Below are positions 47,459 through 55,032 of a DNA stretch of 64,000 nucleotides, in pieces. The stretch is from contig JBDRFG010000008.1 in the NCBI GenBank assembly GCA_043819135.1, positions 29,004-93,003 on the forward strand, read 5' to 3'. A program made the translations under genes and the position numbers. The stretch comes from Candidatus Eiseniibacteriota bacterium (GTDB lineage: Bacteria > Joyebacterota > Joyebacteria > Joyebacterales > Joyebacteraceae). Each line of letters starts with the position of its first letter. Positions within the stretch are counted from its first letter, which is position 1. The notes below the pieces were generated by a model, which worked only from the letters and a program-made list of their open reading frames with translations, had not been told where the DNA came from and did not search any database.

Positions 47459-48070
47459 TCACCTCCTGACGGGTGTCTCGTTCGGTTGAGCAACACTGTC
47501 GCGCACGCTGCCACAAGGGAGGTCTGGCTTGCGCGCCTCGCTCAGGCTGGCTTCCACCTCGCCCTGTATGTAGGAGAGGAAGGTCGGCTTGTCCCCGACG
47601 AGCCCCCATATGGTCTCCAGTTTCTCCCAGCTTCGTTCCTCGCCCGCCTCTACCACGGACACCACGAGCGAACTCTCGAAGATGTCGTATGCGTCGACGA
47701 GCGTCGTGCTGGACTCGTCATCCAGATTGAGGATTGACCACACGAGTCGTCCGTCGGCCAGCTCTTCGGCAAAGCGAGAGCGAATCGCCTCCTCGGCGTA
47801 TGCCTCGAACTTGAGGCAGGTGTCGCAGCGGAGCGTGCGGTGAAAGTAGTAGACCTGCACGTGGTTCGCGAGCGGCGCTCCCAGCTCGGAGCTCGCGGTC
47901 GAGTCAGAAGCCGCCGCCTCTGGCGCATCGCCTCCCGACGACGCGCCGTCGGCACGGCACGGTACGGCGCCGAGCGACAGCGCAAGGGTGGCGACAAGAA
48001 GCGTGAGGAACGACCCGACCAACGCCGGAGAGAACCAGACCAGGCGGACTCGCACCGTGTTTCCCGTCAC
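47459..48070 (-). CDS. Exported thioredoxin-fold protein (ArsF-like, ars-operon associated)
   Basis: Signal peptide; VYYFH..RCDTC..FE; WEKLETIW. Confidence 0.75.
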   Translation of the reverse strand: MTGNTVRVRLVWFSPALVGSFLTLLVATLALSLGAVPCRADGASSGGDAPEAAASDSTASSELGAPLANHVQVYYFHRTLRCDTCLKFEAYAEEAIRSRFAEELADGRLVWSILNLDDESSTTLVDAYDIFESSLVVSVVEAGEERSWEKLETIWGLVGDKPTFLSYIQGEVEASLSEARKPDLPCGSVRDSVAQPNETPVRR

Positions 48071-48303
48071 GCCGCCTCCAGCAACGCTTTGATCTCGTCG
48101 ACCGACAGGAGCTTGCCCGCGCTCTTCACGTCGCCGTCCACAGCCAGCGCCGGAGTCAGCATCACGCCGAATCCCATGATCTCGTTGATGTCGGTGACCT
48201 TCACGACTTCGCAGTCGAGTCCCGACTCACTGACCGCGCTTCCGACCCGCTCCGCCAACATCTTGCATTTGGGGCACCCGGTGCCCAGTATCTGGACCTT
48301 CAT
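48067..48303 (-). CDS. Small redox-active disulfide protein (MTH895/TM0996-like)
   Basis: ILGTGCPKC; GVMLTPAL.VDG. Confidence 0.9.
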   Translation of the reverse strand: MKVQILGTGCPKCKMLAERVGSAVSESGLDCEVVKVTDINEIMGFGVMLTPALAVDGDVKSAGKLLSVDEIKALLEAA

Positions 48304-48313
48304 TGTCTCCTCC

Positions 48314-49615
48314 TCATCCGACGAAGGCGCCGTAGAGCATGCCTGAGACGGTCGCCATCACCACAACCAGCGCGACGAAGACGAGCGTCTTCTTCGTTCC
48401 CATGATGCTTCGAATAACCAGCATGTTCGGAAGCGACAGCGCTGGCCCCGCCAGAAGCAGCGCCAGCGCCGGTCCCTTACCCATGCCGCTACCGATGAGC
48501 CCCTGAAGGATCGGCACTTCGGTCAGCGTGGCGAAGTACATGAACGCCCCGGCCACGGACGCGAACAGGTTCGACCATATCGAGTTCCCCCCGACCGCGC
48601 GTGCGACCCAGATGGAGGGGATCATCCCTTCCTGCCCCGGGCGTCCCAGCAGAACACCGGCGACCAGGACGCCGAAAAGAAGCAGCGGCAGTATCTGCTT
48701 GGCGAACCCCCAGCTCGACTCGAACCACTCGCCCAGCTCGTCGTTCCGAATACTCGTTACAGCACCGAGACCCACGATGCCGGCCGCGAACGGAAGCAAC
48801 GGCTGACCGCGCGCAAACAGCGCAAGCACGACGACCGGCACCGCCACAAGGACCAGCCGCGACACCTTCAGCCCGAACCACGTGACGAGCACCGCTCCGA
48901 GCCCGAGCGCCAGGATTGACGTCACGATCCACTTGCTCGAGTAGATCGCCGCCCACGCGCCCGTTCCCTCCGTGGGCCTACCCCAGTTCGCGAACACGAG
49001 AATGCCGACCATCAGTGCGAAGTAGACACCGTTCTGCCAGAGCGGCCTCACGACCACAGGCTCGGGCATGGCCGCCTGCGCGTCCGCCTTCTCGAGCTCT
49101 TCCTTGCGAAATATGAGGTGCATGAGAAGTCCGATGACTACGCTGAACACCACGGCGCCCACGGCCCGGGCGATGCCGAGCTCGGGTCCCAGCACCCTCG
49201 CGGTCAGGATGATGGCCAGCACGTTGATAGCGGGGCCCGAGTAGAGGAACGCGGTCGCCGGACCCAGCCCGGCGCCCATGCGGTAGATGCCCGCGAAGAG
49301 CGGCAAGACCGTGCAAGAGCAGACGGCAAGTATCGAGCCCGAGACCGACGCAACGCCATAAGCGAGCGGCTTTGGTGCGCGGGCGCCGAGGTACTTCATC
49401 ACCGATTCTTTCTTCACGAATACGGCGATGGCCCCCGCTATCAGAAACGCCGGGAGCAAACAGAGCACGACGTGCTCCCGCGCGTACCACTTGACGAGGT
49501 GGAGCGCCTCCATGATGGAGTTGTCAAACCGCGGGAGACCCACGGGCAGGTAGAACGCGGCCAGAAAGACCGCGGTGATGATCGCAAGAGGCTTCCACTG
49601 TCCCTTCCAGCTCAT
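48314..49615 (-). CDS. ArsP/DUF318-family permease
   Basis: AVCSCTVLP, FLYSGPAIN, YFATLTEVP and LAGPALSLP. Confidence 0.9.
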   Translation of the reverse strand: MSWKGQWKPLAIITAVFLAAFYLPVGLPRFDNSIMEALHLVKWYAREHVVLCLLPAFLIAGAIAVFVKKESVMKYLGARAPKPLAYGVASVSGSILAVCSCTVLPLFAGIYRMGAGLGPATAFLYSGPAINVLAIILTARVLGPELGIARAVGAVVFSVVIGLLMHLIFRKEELEKADAQAAMPEPVVVRPLWQNGVYFALMVGILVFANWGRPTEGTGAWAAIYSSKWIVTSILALGLGAVLVTWFGLKVSRLVLVAVPVVVLALFARGQPLLPFAAGIVGLGAVTSIRNDELGEWFESSWGFAKQILPLLLFGVLVAGVLLGRPGQEGMIPSIWVARAVGGNSIWSNLFASVAGAFMYFATLTEVPILQGLIGSGMGKGPALALLLAGPALSLPNMLVIRSIMGTKKTLVFVALVVVMATVSGMLYGAFVG

Positions 49616-49675
49616 CGTTCCTCCAGGAGTGTTCTTTCGGGGTTCGTGACGATTTGAGCCCGCGGCCGTCCGACG

Positions 49676-50374
49676 CTATCGCGCCGTGTACAGCAGGTAG
49701 ACACCGCCCAGGATTACGAGCGCCCCGCAGACGCGCTTCACGATCACTGCCCCACGGGATCGCTCGTTCCAGTCGAGGTAGCGCTGGACGAACTCGGTGA
49801 ACGTCCCTGCGAGCACGATGAACGAACAGTGGCCTATCCCGTACACTAGAAGGAGCAGCACGCCGTATGCCAGATTGGTCGACGCTAGCCTGAGTGTGAC
49901 GCCAAGCATCGGCGCCATATACGCGAACGTGCACGGCCCGAGCGCCACGCCGAAGACGAGCCCGAGAACGAACGCGGCGAGCCCTCCCCTGCGCTTCATC
50001 TTGACGCTCCCAGGACCGGACCATGGCATCCGGATGACGTCCAGGAGGTTGAGACCCACCACGAAGAAGATGACGGCGACCGCGTAGTTGCCCCAGCGCC
50101 CGACGTCGCCGAGCATGCGTCCGGCAGCCGCAGTGACCCCGCCGATGGCGCCTATCGTGACGAGGATGCCGACCGAGAAGAGCACCGAGATGCCGAAGGC
50201 GCGTCGCGTGGTAATCTGTCCTTGCCCGTTTATGAACCCGACGATGAGCGGAATGCTCGCGAGGTGGCACGGACTCAGGATGATGCTCAGGATGCCCCAC
50301 AAGAACGAGGCCCCGAGCGCGACTGCGGGGGCGCCCTCGACGGCGCGCGTAAGTGTGATGAAGAGCTCTCCCAT
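49676..50374 (-). CDS. ccdA: Cytochrome c biogenesis CcdA / DsbD-like protein
   Basis: LSPC and GPCT motifs within 6 TMs. Confidence 0.85.
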   Translation of the reverse strand: MGELFITLTRAVEGAPAVALGASFLWGILSIILSPCHLASIPLIVGFINGQGQITTRRAFGISVLFSVGILVTIGAIGGVTAAAGRMLGDVGRWGNYAVAVIFFVVGLNLLDVIRMPWSGPGSVKMKRRGGLAAFVLGLVFGVALGPCTFAYMAPMLGVTLRLASTNLAYGVLLLLVYGIGHCSFIVLAGTFTEFVQRYLDWNERSRGAVIVKRVCGALVILGGVYLLYTAR

Positions 50375-50437
50375 GTATCCCCCCGGTTCCTTGGTTCAGT
50401 CGGTGCCGCAACGCATGCCGGCAGCGACGGCGCCGCA

Positions 50438-50464
50438 TCTGCCGCCGGTCGCGCCGGCGGCAGA
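50438..50464. other. Intra-operon stem-loop
   Basis: TCTGCCGCCGG-tcgcg-CCGGCGGCAGA. Confidence 0.5.
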
Positions 50465-50465
50465 C

Positions 50466-50957
50466 TTACTCCTCGAAGACGTACCCGAGCTCCGCCCACT
50501 TTGCGAGCATGTCCTCGCGCGAGAAGAACCCCTGGTGGCGGAAGAGCTCGTTGCCCTCCCCGTCGAAGAATATTTGCGTCGGGATGATCTTGACGCCGAA
50601 CTCCCGCGCCGCCGACGCGTCCTTCCATACGTCGATGAACCTGACGTCCAGCTGCCCCTCGAACGTTTCCTTCATCTCCTCCAGAATAGGCGCCATCACT
50701 TTGCACGGCACGCACTTGTCGGCGCCCAGATCCAGGAGCACTGGGAACCCCGCCGTGACGACCGTACCGGAAGCCACGGATGAGCCCGATGACGCCTCTC
50801 TGGAAGTGGGGTCGGAGGCCGCGACGGACGTGCCCTCGGGCAGACTCGATCCTTCCTCTGCCGGCCTCGAATCATCGCCCGCGCCTCTACCGCACCCGCA
50901 CGCCAGGACTCCGGCGGCAGCGATCACGAACGCGGCCAGCCAGAACCTGCCAGCCAC
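50466..50957 (-). CDS. Thioredoxin-family lipoprotein
   Basis: Lipobox VLACGC; CVPC; IPTQIFFD; start uncertain. Confidence 0.85.
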   Translation of the reverse strand: MAGRFWLAAFVIAAAGVLACGCGRGAGDDSRPAEEGSSLPEGTSVAASDPTSREASSGSSVASGTVVTAGFPVLLDLGADKCVPCKVMAPILEEMKETFEGQLDVRFIDVWKDASAAREFGVKIIPTQIFFDGEGNELFRHQGFFSREDMLAKWAELGYVFEE

Positions 50958-50967
50958 CGTCACCTCT

Positions 50968-51288
50968 CTACTCGACACCATGCCTGCCACAGGATGCCTC
51001 CCCCTTGAGGACCGCTTCCACGCAGTCAAAGAAACCCATAACACATGCCATGCGAAGTGAGTAGTAGACCTCGGAGCCTCTCTTCTCGTCGCTCAGGATG
51101 CCGGCGGACCTCAGGATCGAGAGGTGTTTCGAAACGGTCGACATGTCGGCGCCCACCATCTCGGTCAGCTCGTGCACGCAGCGCTCTCCTCGCGACAGCT
51201 CGTCGACTATGTAGAGCCGCGTCGGGTGCGCCATCGCCTTGAGCACGCGCGCGCGTTCCTCGAATGTTGCCCTGGTTTTCGCGTTCAC
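50968..51288 (-). CDS. arsR: ArsR/SmtB metalloregulator
   Basis: KAMAHPTRL, ERCVHEL, STVSKHL; AGGAGG before GTG. Confidence 0.9.
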   Translation of the reverse strand: MNAKTRATFEERARVLKAMAHPTRLYIVDELSRGERCVHELTEMVGADMSTVSKHLSILRSAGILSDEKRGSEVYYSLRMACVMGFFDCVEAVLKGEASCGRHGVE

Positions 51289-51352
51289 CGCTCCTCCTGA
51301 CCGCGGTCCGAGATGTCCGCTGAAGGGTTTTCGACAGAGGGTCTCTTCTAAC

Positions 51353-51389
51353 ACTTGGCTATTTTACCAAATTACCAAATCATCATCAA
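51353..51389 (-). promoter_or_regulatory. arsR promoter with overlapping inverted-repeat operator
   Basis: TTGATG-17 bp-TAAAAT; imperfect palindrome ACTTGGCTATTTTACCAAAT at 51353-51372. Confidence 0.75.
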
Positions 51390-51435: not shown

Positions 51436-52653
51436 CTATTCCTCGGCGTCACCGTGGTCGTGATGCCCGAAGTCTTCTTTGTCGTACTCCATGCCGGGCC
51501 TGAACGCCGACATTTCCCGCAGCCGCTTCGCTATCCCCGGCAGCACCTCCAGAACGAGGTCGACGTCCTCGTCGGTCGACCACCTGCCGAACGTGAACTG
51601 AAGCGAGCCGTGGGCCTCTTCGTGCTTGATGCCCATCGCCAGCTGGACGTACGAGGGCTCGAGCGTCCTGGCGCTGCACGCCGAACCGCTCGAGACGCTG
51701 ACGCCCTCCATGTCGAGCGACAGAAGAAGGCTCTCCCCCTCGATGTAGGCGAGTCGAACGTTCGCGTTGTTCGGTAGTCGCCGGTCACGTGGGCCGTTGA
51801 GGGTCGTGTCCTCTATGTTGTCGAGGATCCAGTCCATCAGCCGGTCGCGCATGGGCCTGACACGGGCAACGTCGGACTCCATCTCGGCGGCCATGATCTC
51901 CGCGGCCACGCCGAACCCGACGATGCCGGGGACGTTCTCGGTCCCGGATCTCAATCCCTTCTCCTGCCCTCCTCCATGCACGAGTGCCTCGAGCCTGGTG
52001 CCCTTCCTTATACAGAGAGCACCCATGCCCCTGGGCCCATAGATGTCGTTGGACGACAGAGTCATGAGGTCGAACGGTAGAGTGGACAGGTCGATGGGGA
52101 TCCACGCCTCGGCCGCCGTCGCGTCGGTGTGAAAGAGGATACCCGCGGCCCTTGCGATGTCCGCGATCTGGCCGACGGGCTGTATGGTGCCGACCTCCCC
52201 CACGGCCATCATCACGGAGATCAGGATCGTATCGTCGCGGATCGCCGCCTCGACGTCGGCGGGATCGACGAATCCCTCGGAGTCGACGGGGAGGCTCGTC
52301 ACCTCGAAACCAAGTCGCTCGAGATACTTGAGCGGCGTGATGACCGAGCGATGTTCGACCACGGACGAAATGATGTGTTTGCCCTTGGACTGGAGCTTGA
52401 GAGCCGCGCCCTTGAGCGCCATGTTGTTGGATTCAGTCGCTCCGGACGTGAAGACGATCTCGGCAGGTGTGGCGCCGACGAAAGACGCGACGCGTGCACG
52501 CGCTTCCTCGAGCGCCTGGCCAGCGGCGTCGCCGTCATTCCTGAATAGAACGGAAGGGTTTCCGAAGTGCTCGGTCATGTGGGGAATCATCGCCTCGACG
52601 ACGCGAGGATCCACCGGCGCTCCGGACTGGTAGTCGAGGTATCCTCTGGTCAC
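51436..52653 (-). CDS. IscS/NifS-like cysteine desulfurase homolog lacking the PLP-binding Lys (SSNDIYGPRG)
   Basis: YLDY, FGNPS, FTSGATESNN, GGGQEKGLRSGTEN and SSGSACS; canonical HK replaced by ND. Confidence 0.9.
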   Translation of the reverse strand: MTRGYLDYQSGAPVDPRVVEAMIPHMTEHFGNPSVLFRNDGDAAGQALEEARARVASFVGATPAEIVFTSGATESNNMALKGAALKLQSKGKHIISSVVEHRSVITPLKYLERLGFEVTSLPVDSEGFVDPADVEAAIRDDTILISVMMAVGEVGTIQPVGQIADIARAAGILFHTDATAAEAWIPIDLSTLPFDLMTLSSNDIYGPRGMGALCIRKGTRLEALVHGGGQEKGLRSGTENVPGIVGFGVAAEIMAAEMESDVARVRPMRDRLMDWILDNIEDTTLNGPRDRRLPNNANVRLAYIEGESLLLSLDMEGVSVSSGSACSARTLEPSYVQLAMGIKHEEAHGSLQFTFGRWSTDEDVDLVLEVLPGIAKRLREMSAFRPGMEYDKEDFGHHDHGDAEE

Positions 52654-52726
52654 TGGCGTCCACCTCCACTCCCCGGATAACGACGCGGCGCCGCGGCGTT
52701 TCTGGCGGGTTGTCAGACGTCGCGCG

Positions 52727-53095
52727 TCAGAAGGACAGAATGGCGTCCGCGTCGAGCGAGAGGTCGTTCAGTGTCGCTGCGCCGACTACCTCCACTCCGT
52801 CGATGTAGTCTCCCCTGCTGAGTCCCATGAGCTGAGAGCTCTGCTCGCAGACCAGGAACGTCACGCCCGCGTCGGCGGCCCGCTTCATTACCTCGGACAG
52901 CTTGGGGAAATCTCCCATCTGGATCTTGTCCGCCTCGCCGGTCTTGACGACGGTGATCCCCTTGCCCAGGAAGTAGACGGTCGCGTCTACGCCCATGGAG
53001 ACGGCCACGGTCGCAAGAACGAGGGGCGAATACAGTCTCATCGGGGTATCGATACCCGAGGTCTGCACGTAGAGGATACGCTTCTTGTCCGCCAT
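52727..53095 (-). CDS. DsrE/DsrF-like sulfur relay protein
   Basis: YF.GKG, GV..LVCEQS and VVGAA motifs; GGAGGT RBS. Confidence 0.85.
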   Translation of the reverse strand: MADKKRILYVQTSGIDTPMRLYSPLVLATVAVSMGVDATVYFLGKGITVVKTGEADKIQMGDFPKLSEVMKRAADAGVTFLVCEQSSQLMGLSRGDYIDGVEVVGAATLNDLSLDADAILSF

Positions 53096-53188
53096 TGTCA
53101 TTACCTCCGGTGTGGAGGATGCCTGGGACAGCCCGGGCGGTGCCACCGTGCCGCACGACCGGCGCTCCCGGTCGTTCCGTGGGCACCG

Positions 53189-53437
53189 CTACGCCGTCCG
53201 GCGAATGAGGAACCGAAAGACGTTGCCGTCCTTCTCGCAGGAGATGAGCTCGTGGCCGGTTCTCTTCGTCCAGCTCTTGATGTCGGGCTCTGACGATGGA
53301 TCGTCGGCCAGGAGCTCAAGCACTTCGCCGACCTCGACGTCGCCTATCGCCTCGTTGACCCGTATCACGGGCTCCGGGCAGAAGTAGCCGGTCATGTCGA
53401 GTGTCTCGGCGACGATTCTCTCGCTGTCGTCCCCCAT
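53189..53437 (-). CDS. tusA: TusA-family sulfurtransferase
   Basis: LDMTGYFCPEPV, DDPSSEPDI..W...GH. Confidence 0.92.
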   Translation of the reverse strand: MGDDSERIVAETLDMTGYFCPEPVIRVNEAIGDVEVGEVLELLADDPSSEPDIKSWTKRTGHELISCEKDGNVFRFLIRRTA

Positions 53438-53628
53438 TGTACCTCCGTCCATCACGGTCTCTTGACGTAGTCGGACTCGCGGGACCAAGCCAGATGCGCG
53501 CCATGTCTCTTAGTTGGCTCCCGCGAGCCCTGCGCACGTCTTATTGTGCACACGCATTAGGATGCCGACACGCCGACGTGGGTTCTCGGCGCCGGCTGCT
53601 CGGTTGCTGCCTGGAAACGGGCTAGTGG

Positions 53629-54297
53629 CTAGTAGACGATGGCCGAGTGCAGTATCCCCACAAGCGCCCAGAGTGGCCCCAGGACCCCCGAGAAGATGAG
53701 AAGCATCAGGATCATGAATCCGTAGCGCCCGATGCTGAGGAACTGCCAACCCATGTCGCGCGGCAGGGCGGCCGCGATGAGACGGGACCCATCGAGCGGT
53801 GGAATCGGCAGAAGATTGAAGAGAGCAAGAAGCAGGTTGATGTATATGCCCCACGAGGCGATGGTCGCGACGAACAGCCATCCGAACGACAGCGACACGT
53901 GGAAGACGAGCGAGTAGACCATGACCTGCGCCAGGTTCGAGACGGGCCCGGCCATGGCCGTGATGGCGAAGTCTCTCATCGGGTCCTTGAACTGCCGCAT
54001 GTCGATCGGGACGGGCTTCGCCCAGCCCAGGAGCGGGAGGTGCATTATCACGGCTATCGCCGGCAGGATGATACTCCCCACGAGGTCGATGTGGGGTATC
54101 GGGTTCAGGGTTATCCTGCCCTGTCTCCTGGCCGTGGGGTCACCCAGCTTCTCCGCCACCACTCCGTGCGAAACCTCGTGGATGATCACGGAGAAGAGCA
54201 GGATGGCTATCGTAACAGGGATCCGGAGTACGCTGATGATGCTGTCCAATGGCGCCTCGCGCGCGCTGCGCAGTAGTTCCTCTGTGCGGCCGGTCAC
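53629..54297 (-). CDS. Site-2 protease (M50) family protein
   Basis: HEVSH and FNLLPIPPLDG; start may be TTG 54249. Confidence 0.92.
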   Translation of the reverse strand: MTGRTEELLRSAREAPLDSIISVLRIPVTIAILLFSVIIHEVSHGVVAEKLGDPTARRQGRITLNPIPHIDLVGSIILPAIAVIMHLPLLGWAKPVPIDMRQFKDPMRDFAITAMAGPVSNLAQVMVYSLVFHVSLSFGWLFVATIASWGIYINLLLALFNLLPIPPLDGSRLIAAALPRDMGWQFLSIGRYGFMILMLLIFSGVLGPLWALVGILHSAIVY

Positions 54298-55032
54298 TCA
54301 GGCCTCGTCGTCCTCAACCTCGTCGCCGGCCCAACCCGCGTCGTTCGTCCGTCCGGCGACGACATCCACGATGTCCTTGAACCGCGTTATGACCTCGCAA
54401 TCGACATCGTCGTAGGCTCCGACCGGATCGAAGAGCACTGGCAGCATGCCGGCCGCCCTCGCCCCGCGCACGTCGACCTCGTAGTAGTCGCCGACGTATA
54501 CCGCTTCCTCGGGCGACAGAGAACTTCTCTTGAGCGCGTCCCGGAAGATCCCGCGGTTCGGCTTGCTGATACCCACGATAGCCGAATCGATGACGAAGTC
54601 AAACCGGTCAAGAATGCCGATCTCGTCCAGCCTCCACTCCAGGCGCCCGTCCGAGTTGGATATGATGCCCAGAGACAGGTTCCGCGCCGCCAGTTCGTCC
54701 AGAGTGTCGTCCAGACCCTCGACCGGTTCCTTCCATATGCCGAGCCCGGTGTCGTTCGCAACGCGAGTCATCTCGATCGCGTCCGGGATCGTTTCCGCCG
54801 GAACGCCGAGCAGCTCGAAGAACGGCGTGTAGTACACCGACCAGAATTCGTGCACGCCCGAGCCGGGAGAATCTGCCACCGATCTGTCGAACGCGCTTCT
54901 GGCGGCGGCCTCGGCTCGCACGATCCCCTCAATGGCAACCTCAACACCAAGAGCCTCGCAGATATCCCGGTAGATGTAGTAATCCGGGAAGAGGATCGTA
55001 TTGCCCGCGTCGAAGAAGACGCCTCGTATCAT
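54298..55032 (-). CDS. HAD-superfamily hydrolase
   Basis: FFDAGNT, ISN, KP and VGD...DV.GA. Confidence 0.9.
   Translation of the reverse strand: MIRGVFFDAGNTILFPDYYIYRDICEALGVEVAIEGIVRAEAAARSAFDRSVADSPGSGVHEFWSVYYTPFFELLGVPAETIPDAIEMTRVANDTGLGIWKEPVEGLDDTLDELAARNLSLGIISNSDGRLEWRLDEIGILDRFDFVIDSAIVGISKPNRGIFRDALKRSSLSPEEAVYVGDYYEVDVRGARAAGMLPVLFDPVGAYDDVDCEVITRFKDIVDVVAGRTNDAGWAGDEVEDDEA

Follow-up and report, generated by a model that had tools for sequence, protein, structure and literature searches.

An IscS Without the Catalytic Lysine and Its Linkage to the Persulfide Carriers TusA and DsrE in Eisenbacteria

Introduction

From where could sulfur reach an IscS that no longer has the catalytic lysine of a cysteine desulfurase, and why do genes for two sulfur carriers stand in front of its gene? 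This question is raised by a three-gene locus of a Candidatus Eiseniibacteriota bacterium, located in a stretch of 64,000 nucleotides (contig JBDRFG010000008.1, positions 29,004 to 93,003) that is called the window below. The genes tusA, dsrE and an iscS-like gene, here termed iscS*, lie close together on its minus strand, with GGAGG ahead of each. An initial annotation, made from the DNA letters, had described them as a sulfur relay built on a desulfurase-dead IscS. We found a strong and conserved linkage of lysine-less IscS genes to TusA and DsrE genes, and we propose, with about even confidence, that tusA-dsrE-iscS* is one sulfur-trafficking unit for the assembly of iron-sulfur (Fe-S) clusters, in which noncatalytic IscS* would be a partner of IscU and its loop Cys would be loaded by TusA and DsrE. 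The observation made in the initial annotation is confirmed, and its interpretation is partly supported.

Lysine-less IscS proteins are already known, namely, those of Archaeoglobus fulgidus and Methanosarcina acetivorans (IscS1). According to the Archaeoglobus passages of two papers (PMC7585200, PMC8918507), the A. fulgidus IscS shows no desulfurase activity because of its Lys-to-Asp substitution and ligates the [2Fe-2S] cluster on IscU through a Cys; these passages are confined to IscS and IscU and say nothing of tusA or dsrE. In the same passages of the latter paper, a 2022 review of desulfurases, the protein is described as containing pyridoxamine 5'-phosphate (PMP) when alone and pyridoxal 5'-phosphate (PLP) in the complex with IscU, with PMP also found in the D199K variant, and the sulfur source of the Archaeoglobus IscS-IscU cluster is left open, with free sulfide as a guess (PMC8918507). 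The part of PMC7585200 on M. acetivorans describes IscS1 as being without the catalytic Lys, and the legend of its supplementary Fig. S1, the sole place in the literature examined where the neighbors are named, assigns to the isc1 cluster (MA0806-MA0811) a SirA-like protein (MA0810), a member of the "DrsE superfamily" (MA0809), IscS1 (MA0808) and IscU1 (MA0807), the neighbors being termed "genes of unknown function" in the main text. Our literature search, which did not cover the founding paper on the MIS system (Garcia et al. 2022), found no paper that interprets the link between lysine-less IscS and tusA-dsrE. What is new here is a bacterial variant without adjacent iscU, with a conserved His-rich tail, with a canonical NifS alongside, and with sister genomes that have no carriers.

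Loss of Catalytic Residues and Retention of the Cofactor Pocket in IscS*

The gene iscS* (51436..52653, minus strand) encodes 405 amino acids from a GTG start past GGAGG. Its product matched the Pfam family Aminotran_5 (PF00266) with 229.3 bits (cut-off 21.5) over profile positions 2-370 of 371, and this full-length match above the gathering score places it in the class-V aminotransferase fold, IscS/NifS group. All NCBIfam desulfurase cut-offs were missed, with scores of 467 for NifS (cut-off 530.75) and of 426.7 and 423.4 for the two IscS models (548 and 643.2, respectively). The Schiff-base motif, which reads SxHKxYGPKG in active enzymes, is LSSNDIYGPRG in IscS*, where Asp203 (codon 52045..52047, minus strand) replaces the catalytic Lys, K206 in E. 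coli. HTDATA stands where sampled active enzymes have H-x-D-A-x-Q, and MMAVGEVG stands at the place of NNE, while the Cys loop SVSSGSACSAR is intact, with the invariant C326 (E. coli C328; codon 51676..51678, minus strand) as the persulfide or cluster-ligand residue. The initial annotation had read the same substitutions, the intact loop Cys and a C-terminus rich in His and acidic residues, and all of these, including the coordinates of the Asp codon, were found in the iscS* sequence. One loss that it did not report is that of the Arg of S-I-R-F (R354 of E. coli IscS), which has a substrate-carboxylate role; this position is Gln in IscS*.

These positions were compared in 161 aligned IscS-family sequences from fetched loci, comprising 83 sequences with Asn-Asp in the motif (ND type), 1 WD, 63 HK, 7 QK and 7 in which Gln replaces the Lys; all positions are named by E. 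coli IscS numbers through alignment to that protein. The K206 column contained Asp in 84/84 sequences of the ND/WD group and Lys in all HK (63/63) and QK (7/7) sequences. The other catalytic columns separated the ND/WD group (n = 84) from the HK group (n = 63) in a similar manner: H205 was replaced by Asn in 98 % of the former and was His in 100 % of the latter; Q183 was replaced by Ala in 92 % and was Gln in 100 %; R354 was unconserved, with Leu as the commonest residue (29 %), and was Arg in 63/63; and the N-N of NNE was relaxed in the former and 100 % conserved in the latter. The ring-stacking H104, the D180 that faces the pyridine nitrogen, and the Thr of the GATE phosphate loop were conserved in 100 % of the 84 ND/WD sequences, and the loop Cys was conserved in 100 % of every group. 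Of the traits of an active cysteine desulfurase (EC 2.8.1.7), IscS* thus has the loop Cys and has neither the Lys, the Arg, the Gln nor the equivalog score, and it has both traits of the inactive A. fulgidus-type IscS, namely, Asp within S-S-N-D and Ala at the Gln position. As judged from sequence, the residues for cysteine turnover are gone, and those for a pyridoxal-type cofactor and the mobile Cys are still under selection. Since a PLP internal aldimine could not be formed and the Arg invariant in the sampled active enzymes is missing, IscS* would be expected to obtain no sulfur from free cysteine.

Conservation of this altered protein was strong. The best 120 homologs in the protein collection, which were 70-91 % identical to IscS*, contained S-N-D in 119 cases and N-E in one, and G-S-A-C was kept in 120/120. 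The pairwise ratio of nonsynonymous to synonymous substitution rates (dN/dS) of iscS* among nine Eisenbacteria-type loci was 0.10-0.23, with a median of 0.18 (36/36 usable pairs), so that the gene is under purifying selection. The carrier genes gave a median of 0.185 for dsrE (maximum 0.21; 15/15 usable pairs) and of 0.27 for tusA (maximum 0.36; 11/15 usable pairs). The C-terminal tail FRPGMEYDKEDFGHHDHGDAEE (51439..51504, minus strand) is specific to this clade; its pattern P-G-M-E-Y-D-K-x-E-F-x-x-H-x-H is conserved, at least two His were present in 114/120 of the best homologs, and the tail occurred in all 9 Eisenbacteria-like loci, the median tail of 80 ND sequences being 8 residues. Unrelated His-rich tails were found on two archaeal sequences (L097, L105).

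Linkage of Lysine-Less IscS Genes to tusA and dsrE

Loci of the ND type were collected by searching a species-genome collection with a degenerate DNA pattern for N-D-I-Y-G-P-K-G, which yielded at least 117 stretches, 80 of them with 5-kb flanks; one of these 80 (L094) had matched by chance and contained no IscS gene. Small hidden Markov models of TusA, DsrE and IscU were built from the fetched loci, and all stop-to-stop frames were scanned with them. Only loci whose two flanks each reached 1.2 kb or more were considered, and a partner was counted when it lay on the same strand within 1.5 kb. Among 60 ND loci, TusA was found beside 50, DsrE beside 39, IscU beside 51, TusA plus DsrE beside 38, all three beside 33 and none beside 3, whereas among 58 Lys-bearing loci, which were drawn by relatedness to the query and not by DNA pattern, the corresponding numbers were 0, 0, 27, 0, 0 and 31. 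The initial annotation had suggested examining ND-type homologs for such linkage, and the association was found. A single chance juxtaposition as the origin of the arrangement was rejected on these counts.

The commonest order in ND loci was tusA-dsrE-iscS-iscU with short gaps. Archaeal hosts were Asgard archaea, Bathyarchaeia (often with tusA only), Thermoplasmata, Methanomassiliicoccales, Methanocellales, Hadarchaeum and Halobacteriota; bacterial hosts were Deltaproteobacteria/Syntrophia, Aminicenantes, WOR-3, Stahlbacteria, Spirochaetota, Clostridia, Acidobacteriota and Gaiellales. The full order, with the ND gene as iscS, was also found in an Archaeoglobus sp. and in an Archaeoglobaceae genome. 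In this Archaeoglobus sp. (G001; completeness not known), the ND gene was the only strong Aminotran_5 match, and the next three hits were non-desulfurases, namely, one aminotransferase and two SepCysS, so that a non-cysteine sulfur source is favored there.

In the tree, all 84 ND/WD tips fell into one clade, with no Lys-bearing tip inside. A second lysine-less group of 7 sequences (L019, L020, L021, L028, L012, L013 and L015), with Gln at the Lys position (support 1.0), branched with three HK sequences (0.94), outside the ND clade. Its motifs are A-G-D-Q, A-A-N-Q and A-A-S-Q, its Cys loop is G-S-T-C or G-S-S-C, and its hosts are Sumerlaeota, Desulfovibrionaceae, Syntrophomonadaceae, Eubacteriales, Planctomycetia and Omnitrophota. 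Most of the sampled loci of this group contained tusA, with or without dsrE, and the arrangements included iscS-iscU-tusA-dsrE, iscS-iscU-nadA and rrf2-nfu-iscS-tusA. Because the group branches separately, it represents a second, separate instance of the link between lysine-less IscS and tusA.

Other variants were observed in the same material. IscS of Patescibacteria/Saccharibacteria (L025-L027, L036, L039, L040, L055) has S-S-Q-K, with Gln for the His that precedes the Lys, and S-T-A-S-A-C in the Cys loop, and keeps the Lys, Gln183 and Arg. In a Nitrososphaerota archaeon, the S-S-W-D IscS gene is followed by an iscU that is split by a LAGLIDADG intein, with a NifU_N product of 523 amino acids (L014:1947-3518, plus strand). 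ND and Lys-bearing IscS genes occur together in separate loci of a Methanoperedenaceae genome (G003; L208, L216) and a Methanomassiliicoccus genome (G004; L209, L217), as in Eisenbacteria, and the Lys-bearing gene of the former is followed by its own iscU.

The TusA and DsrE Carriers

The two genes directly upstream of iscS* are those named in the initial annotation, a CPEP-containing TusA and a single-Cys DsrE, and both assignments held. The gene tusA (53189..53437, minus strand) probably starts at an ATG at 53437, a few bases past GGAGG, within a listed open reading frame of 99 amino acids with a TTG start (53189-53488, minus strand) that contains YFCPEP; the active-site Cys of CPEP is encoded at 53369..53371 (minus strand). 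Membership in the TusA/SirA carriers is indicated by a PF01206 score of 78.5 bits (cut-off 28.6), the CPxP Cys, which was found in 73/73 cluster sequences, and the Asp pair: C19, P20, P22, D44, D45 and D51 were invariant across 48 TusA sequences, with DDP...D corresponding to D45/D51 of E. coli. Among solved structures, E. coli TusA matched the TusA profile best, and the score for the E. coli TusA equivalog was 61.1, under its cut-off of 78. This TusA is the only one of the genome.

The gene dsrE (52727..53101, minus strand) probably starts at an ATG at 53101 or 53095, past GGAGG, within a listed open reading frame of 139 amino acids with a GTG start (52727-53146, minus strand) and one Cys, in FLVCEQS (codon 52847..52849, minus strand). 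Its product belongs to the DsrE/TusD family, with 66.1 bits for PF02635 (cut-off 22.7), 53.9 bits for PF13686 and the active-site Cys; this Cys was kept in 57/57 cluster sequences and is the invariant C85 of a DsrE alignment. The nearest solved chain is 3mc3, an uncharacterized DsrE/DsrF-like protein. Assignment to DsrE2, DsrEFH or TusBCD was rejected (DsrE2 39.5 vs 210, TusC 17.3 vs 94, and no second DsrE-family gene at the locus); NCBIfam offers only the DsrE2 and TusC models, both of which failed, so that DsrE4, DsrE5 or a new subgroup remain candidates. A weak second DsrE-family match was noted elsewhere in the genome (G000:C126:3339-3548, minus strand; 31.1 bits, profile positions 36-115). 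A complex prediction for IscS*, TusA and DsrE, with a 48-row alignment for each and DsrE scored, gave 0.09 against a mark of 0.32 and counts neither way.

Distribution across the Phylum

In a phylum sample of 31 genomes from one family and eight genera, an ND ortholog was present in 30 genomes, full-length in 28 (at least 70 % identity) and partial in two. The gene dsrE was directly upstream of iscS* in 25/30, with tusA beyond it in 24 and a contig end in the other, and in G018 tusA-dsrE lay at the edge of another contig. In Eisenbacteria, tusA and dsrE were confined to the iscS* locus, save that a few genomes had a second, weaker TusA-family match, and the two genes were lost together. In locus L016, iscS* comes immediately after a peptidase M50 gene, about 280 bases away from it, in the syntenic slot that holds tusA-dsrE in the window, which indicates that tusA-dsrE was gained or lost as a unit.

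The absence of iscU noted in the initial annotation holds for the locus and not for the genome: the only NifU_N/IscU match of this genome lies on another contig (C13), with none in the window, and IscU was single-copy in 31/31 phylum genomes and never adjacent to iscS*. The directly downstream iscU of the A. fulgidus type is therefore missing here, vs 51/60 ND loci elsewhere. Because iscU is unlinked, the IscU partnership in Eisenbacteria is proposed from homology alone. A canonical NifS is encoded elsewhere in the genome, with SSHKIYGPKG, HTDAVQ and ANNE and a score of 531.8 against the NifS equivalog cut-off of 530.75, and a second IscS paralog (42-53 % identity) was present in 28/31 phylum genomes, with the Lys verified in the window's genome only. 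No SufB/D match was found in this genome, which is 92 % complete. The nine Eisenbacteria-type IscS* sequences form a clade (support 1.0) that is sister (0.96) to the archaeal L148 and L152, both without downstream iscU, and the large bacterial ND group is placed elsewhere in the tree. This placement suggests a separate acquisition of iscS* by Eisenbacteria.

Comparison with Known Sulfur-Transfer Systems

The best solved match of IscS* was A. fulgidus IscS2 (4eb5, "probable cysteine desulfurase 2"; E 1.5e-131, residues 4-383 aligned), which is also represented by 4eb7, 4hvk and 4r5f, the last being the D199K variant with Lys restored. Like IscS*, 4eb5 has Asp in the motif (SSNDIYGPKG), D-A-T-A for D-A-x-Q and an intact Cys loop, and the A. 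fulgidus precedent that the initial annotation had cited proved correct with regard to both the substitution and, as the Archaeoglobus passages of PMC7585200 and PMC8918507 state, the inactivity. The two proteins differ at the R354 position (Leu in 4eb5, Gln in IscS*), at the NNE site (VGE instead of NNE in IscS*) and in the tail, which has 22 residues rich in His and acidic residues in IscS* and 4 residues in Archaeoglobaceae. The sampled Archaeoglobaceae resemble the window in having tusA-dsrE ahead of the ND gene and differ in having iscU directly after it; in addition, IscS* comes from a bacterium with a canonical NifS alongside, unlike the Archaeoglobus system. The isc1 cluster of M. acetivorans is the same tusA-dsrE-iscS-iscU set, with a HIT protein and an adjacent 24 kDa IscU1 that are both absent from the window.

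The same three families act in one pathway in E. coli, from IscS to TusA to TusBCD (TusD being a DsrE homolog), and to our knowledge the genes of this relay are not clustered with iscS. The equivalents of E. coli TusA Cys19, Asp45 and Asp51 are invariant in the cluster TusA sequences. In E. coli, however, the sulfur is supplied by IscS itself, an active desulfurase, whereas IscS* has no Lys and does not keep the docking residues W45 and E49; the window DsrE also stands alone, with no dsrF/dsrH or tusB/tusC alongside, unlike TusBCD. In E. coli, sulfur passes from the loop Cys of IscS to TusA over a distance of about 4 Å, with roles for TusA Cys19, Asp45 and Asp51 and with W45, E49, D52 and R55 of IscS as docking residues (PMC2854127). 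Sulfur oxidizers likewise have a tusA-dsrE pair of Cys-based carriers (DsrE3A-TusA in Metallosphaera cuprina, rhd-tusA-dsrE2 in Allochromatium), and M. cuprina DsrE3A and TusA were reported to bind each other and to transfer thiosulfonate (PMC4175335). These pairs adjoin hdr-like or dsr genes of energy metabolism, whereas the window pair adjoins iscS*; moreover, DsrE3A has Cys-X7-Cys, whereas the window DsrE has one Cys and is far under the DsrE2 cut-off. The MIS system (minimal ISC system; MisS plus MisU) pairs a cysteine desulfurase with a scaffold, without a carrier, according to the relevant passages of PMC12192291 and PMC13066941. This genome resembles MIS, an IscS-like and IscU-like pair that has neither chaperones nor carriers, in combining IscS-like and IscU-like components (NifS/IscS-type proteins and one IscU, with no SufB/D match), and differs in having one "S" component without the Lys, linked to a pair of carrier genes, and in that S and U genes are non-adjacent.

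Operon Layout and Genomic Surroundings

The intergenic gaps are 87 bases between tusA and dsrE and 73 bases between dsrE and iscS*, and the GC content is about 63 %. A promoter-like site, TTGATG-17-TAAAAT with TG (51361..51389, minus strand), lies between iscS* and the downstream arsR and is possibly where the tusA-dsrE-iscS* unit ends; it is a consensus match only, as are all three such sites of the scanned region (1.0 expected). The terminator and promoter scan, which is too weak to fix the operon end, found no terminator after iscS*. In a groundwater RNA library, two contigs were identical to the window, one at 52210-52365, inside iscS*, and one at 53232-53551, over tusA and 114 bases upstream; these are at most a hint of expression, because DNA can occur in RNA libraries and neither strand nor level can be read from them, and the stretches that no contig covers carry no meaning. 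No public sequencing run contained half of the query words.

Upstream of tusA lie HAD hydrolase and peptidase M50 genes (53629-55032, minus strand), a synteny that is kept in related Eisenbacteria (L011, L016). The gene iscS* is followed immediately, on its own strand, by a six-gene cluster of redox/efflux type (47459-51354, minus strand), which encodes an ArsR-family regulator (50968-51354), a thioredoxin with a long N-terminal extension (50466-51044), a DsbD_TM/ArsG-like membrane protein (49676-50374), an ArsP_1 permease (48314-49615), an MTH895/ArsE-type Trx_3 protein (48067-48303) and an ArsF-family protein (47459-48070), all on the minus strand. In L011 and L016, a Trx_3 gene directly follows iscS*.

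Discussion

In the unit that we propose, IscS* would dock on the single, unlinked IscU of the genome, as its Archaeoglobus relative does, and C326 of its loop would serve as a persulfide carrier, a cluster ligand or both. TusA and the single-Cys DsrE would bring sulfane sulfur to C326, and the sulfur itself could be released from cysteine by the canonical NifS or stem from persulfides derived from sulfide, polysulfide or thiosulfate. For this unit we infer which proteins touch, which way the sulfur moves and where it comes from; the inactivity of IscS* and the role of its Cys as a ligand would carry over by analogy from the papers on the Archaeoglobus protein. The scaffold or Cys-ligand role considered in the initial annotation is, to this extent, consistent with what was shown for that protein.

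Several observations weigh against this proposal. The ND and Lys-bearing samples of the linkage comparison were drawn differently; support for the node of the most recent common ancestor of the ND clade was only 0.35; and, with one ND clade whose members are related and thus non-independent, the linkage may reflect few evolutionary events. None of 84 ND sequences had Trp at the position of the TusA-docking W45 (46 had Asp), and the E49 position was variable; of the E. coli docking set, only the R55 equivalent was kept, in ND and Lys-bearing sequences alike. Where iscU is on the same contig as iscS*, it lies 95-109 kb off. With a canonical NifS present, a non-cysteine source is not required; the cysteine independence put forward in the initial annotation is not supported, since this NifS could supply TusA in the usual direction, and loading from sulfide or polysulfide and a reversed flow would be hypothetical. 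Finally, four of the 30 relatives with the ND gene (G010, G021, G023 and G024, which are 98, 100, 78 and 100 % complete, respectively) have neither tusA nor dsrE anywhere in the genome, so that IscS* has some function independent of the carriers; the wording of a relay "built on" IscS* was therefore an overstatement.

The flow of sulfur may instead be an ordinary one from cysteine, in which NifS makes the persulfide, TusA and DsrE carry it, and IscS* is a receiving adaptor, or a regulator competing for the single IscU, in a pathway that is not cysteine-independent. We consider this explanation unlikely. It draws on a NifS that reaches its equivalog cut-off, on the widespread second paralog, on the one IscU per genome, and on the established transfer from IscS to TusA in E. 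coli (PMC2854127), while the four-gene cluster of the Archaeoglobus sp., in which the ND gene has no evident desulfurase beside it among the Aminotran_5 hits that were classified, and the absence of tusA from all 58 Lys-bearing loci speak against it.

It is also conceivable, though similarly unlikely in our view, that IscS* is a structural partner or cluster ligand of IscU only, that TusA and DsrE serve another client, such as tRNA thiolation, the molybdenum cofactor or reactive sulfur, and that the linkage is one of co-regulation. The relatives that keep IscS* after loss of both carrier genes and the unconserved docking residues would fit such a division of labor, and any other TusA-dependent pathway must use this TusA, since the genome has no second one. 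Against it stand the occurrence of TusA and DsrE genes beside lysine-less IscS in archaea and in many bacterial phyla, and beside none of the 58 Lys-bearing genes sampled; the same link in a second lysine-less clade; and the near-exclusive presence of tusA and dsrE at this locus in Eisenbacteria, with their joint loss.

A third explanation, that IscS* is still an enzyme that uses noncovalently bound PLP or PMP for other chemistry, acting on a carrier-bound persulfide or thiosulfonate or as a PMP-type transferase, is quite improbable. The complete conservation of the ring-stacking His, the pyridine-nitrogen Asp and the phosphate-loop Thr does place the cofactor pocket under selection, and the A. 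fulgidus protein was described, in the section of PMC8918507 cited above, as having PMP alone and PLP with IscU. The same section reports no such activity for the Archaeoglobus protein and notes PMP in D199K as well, and the Arg and Gln that are invariant in active enzymes are lost.

That iscS* is a decaying duplicate of NifS, or its Asp a sequencing or assembly error, is hardly credible and was rejected: several catalytic residues are lost together and the score is under every NCBIfam desulfurase cut-off, but the Asp recurs in 119/120 homologs, the frame is full-length, dN/dS is 0.10-0.23 in 36/36 pairs, an ortholog exists in 30/31 phylum genomes and the same motif is present in a crystallized protein, which also contradicts two of the refutations that the initial annotation had foreseen, error and relaxed selection.

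Returning to the proposed sulfur-trafficking unit, we regard a wider form of it as possible but doubtful: in lysine-less IscS, the loop Cys would receive from TusA and DsrE sulfane sulfur of non-cysteine origin (derived from sulfide, polysulfide or thiosulfate), as a second sulfur entry to IscU-based assembly in anaerobes of both Archaea and Bacteria, and Eisenbacteria would run both entries on one IscU according to sulfur supply, with the tail adding metal handling where iscU is not adjacent.

Two persulfide-carrier genes that steadily precede lysine-less iscS, in the sampled Archaeoglobaceae as well, are concrete candidates for the missing sulfur donors, and the question of the donor for an inactive IscS-IscU pair becomes a set of simple transfer assays. 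Eisenbacteria offer natural experiments in this respect, with a dead and a live enzyme alongside one IscU, relatives that have iscS* without tusA-dsrE, and a clade-specific His-rich tail. If true, non-cysteine loading would give anaerobes a second sulfur entry into IscU-based cluster assembly.

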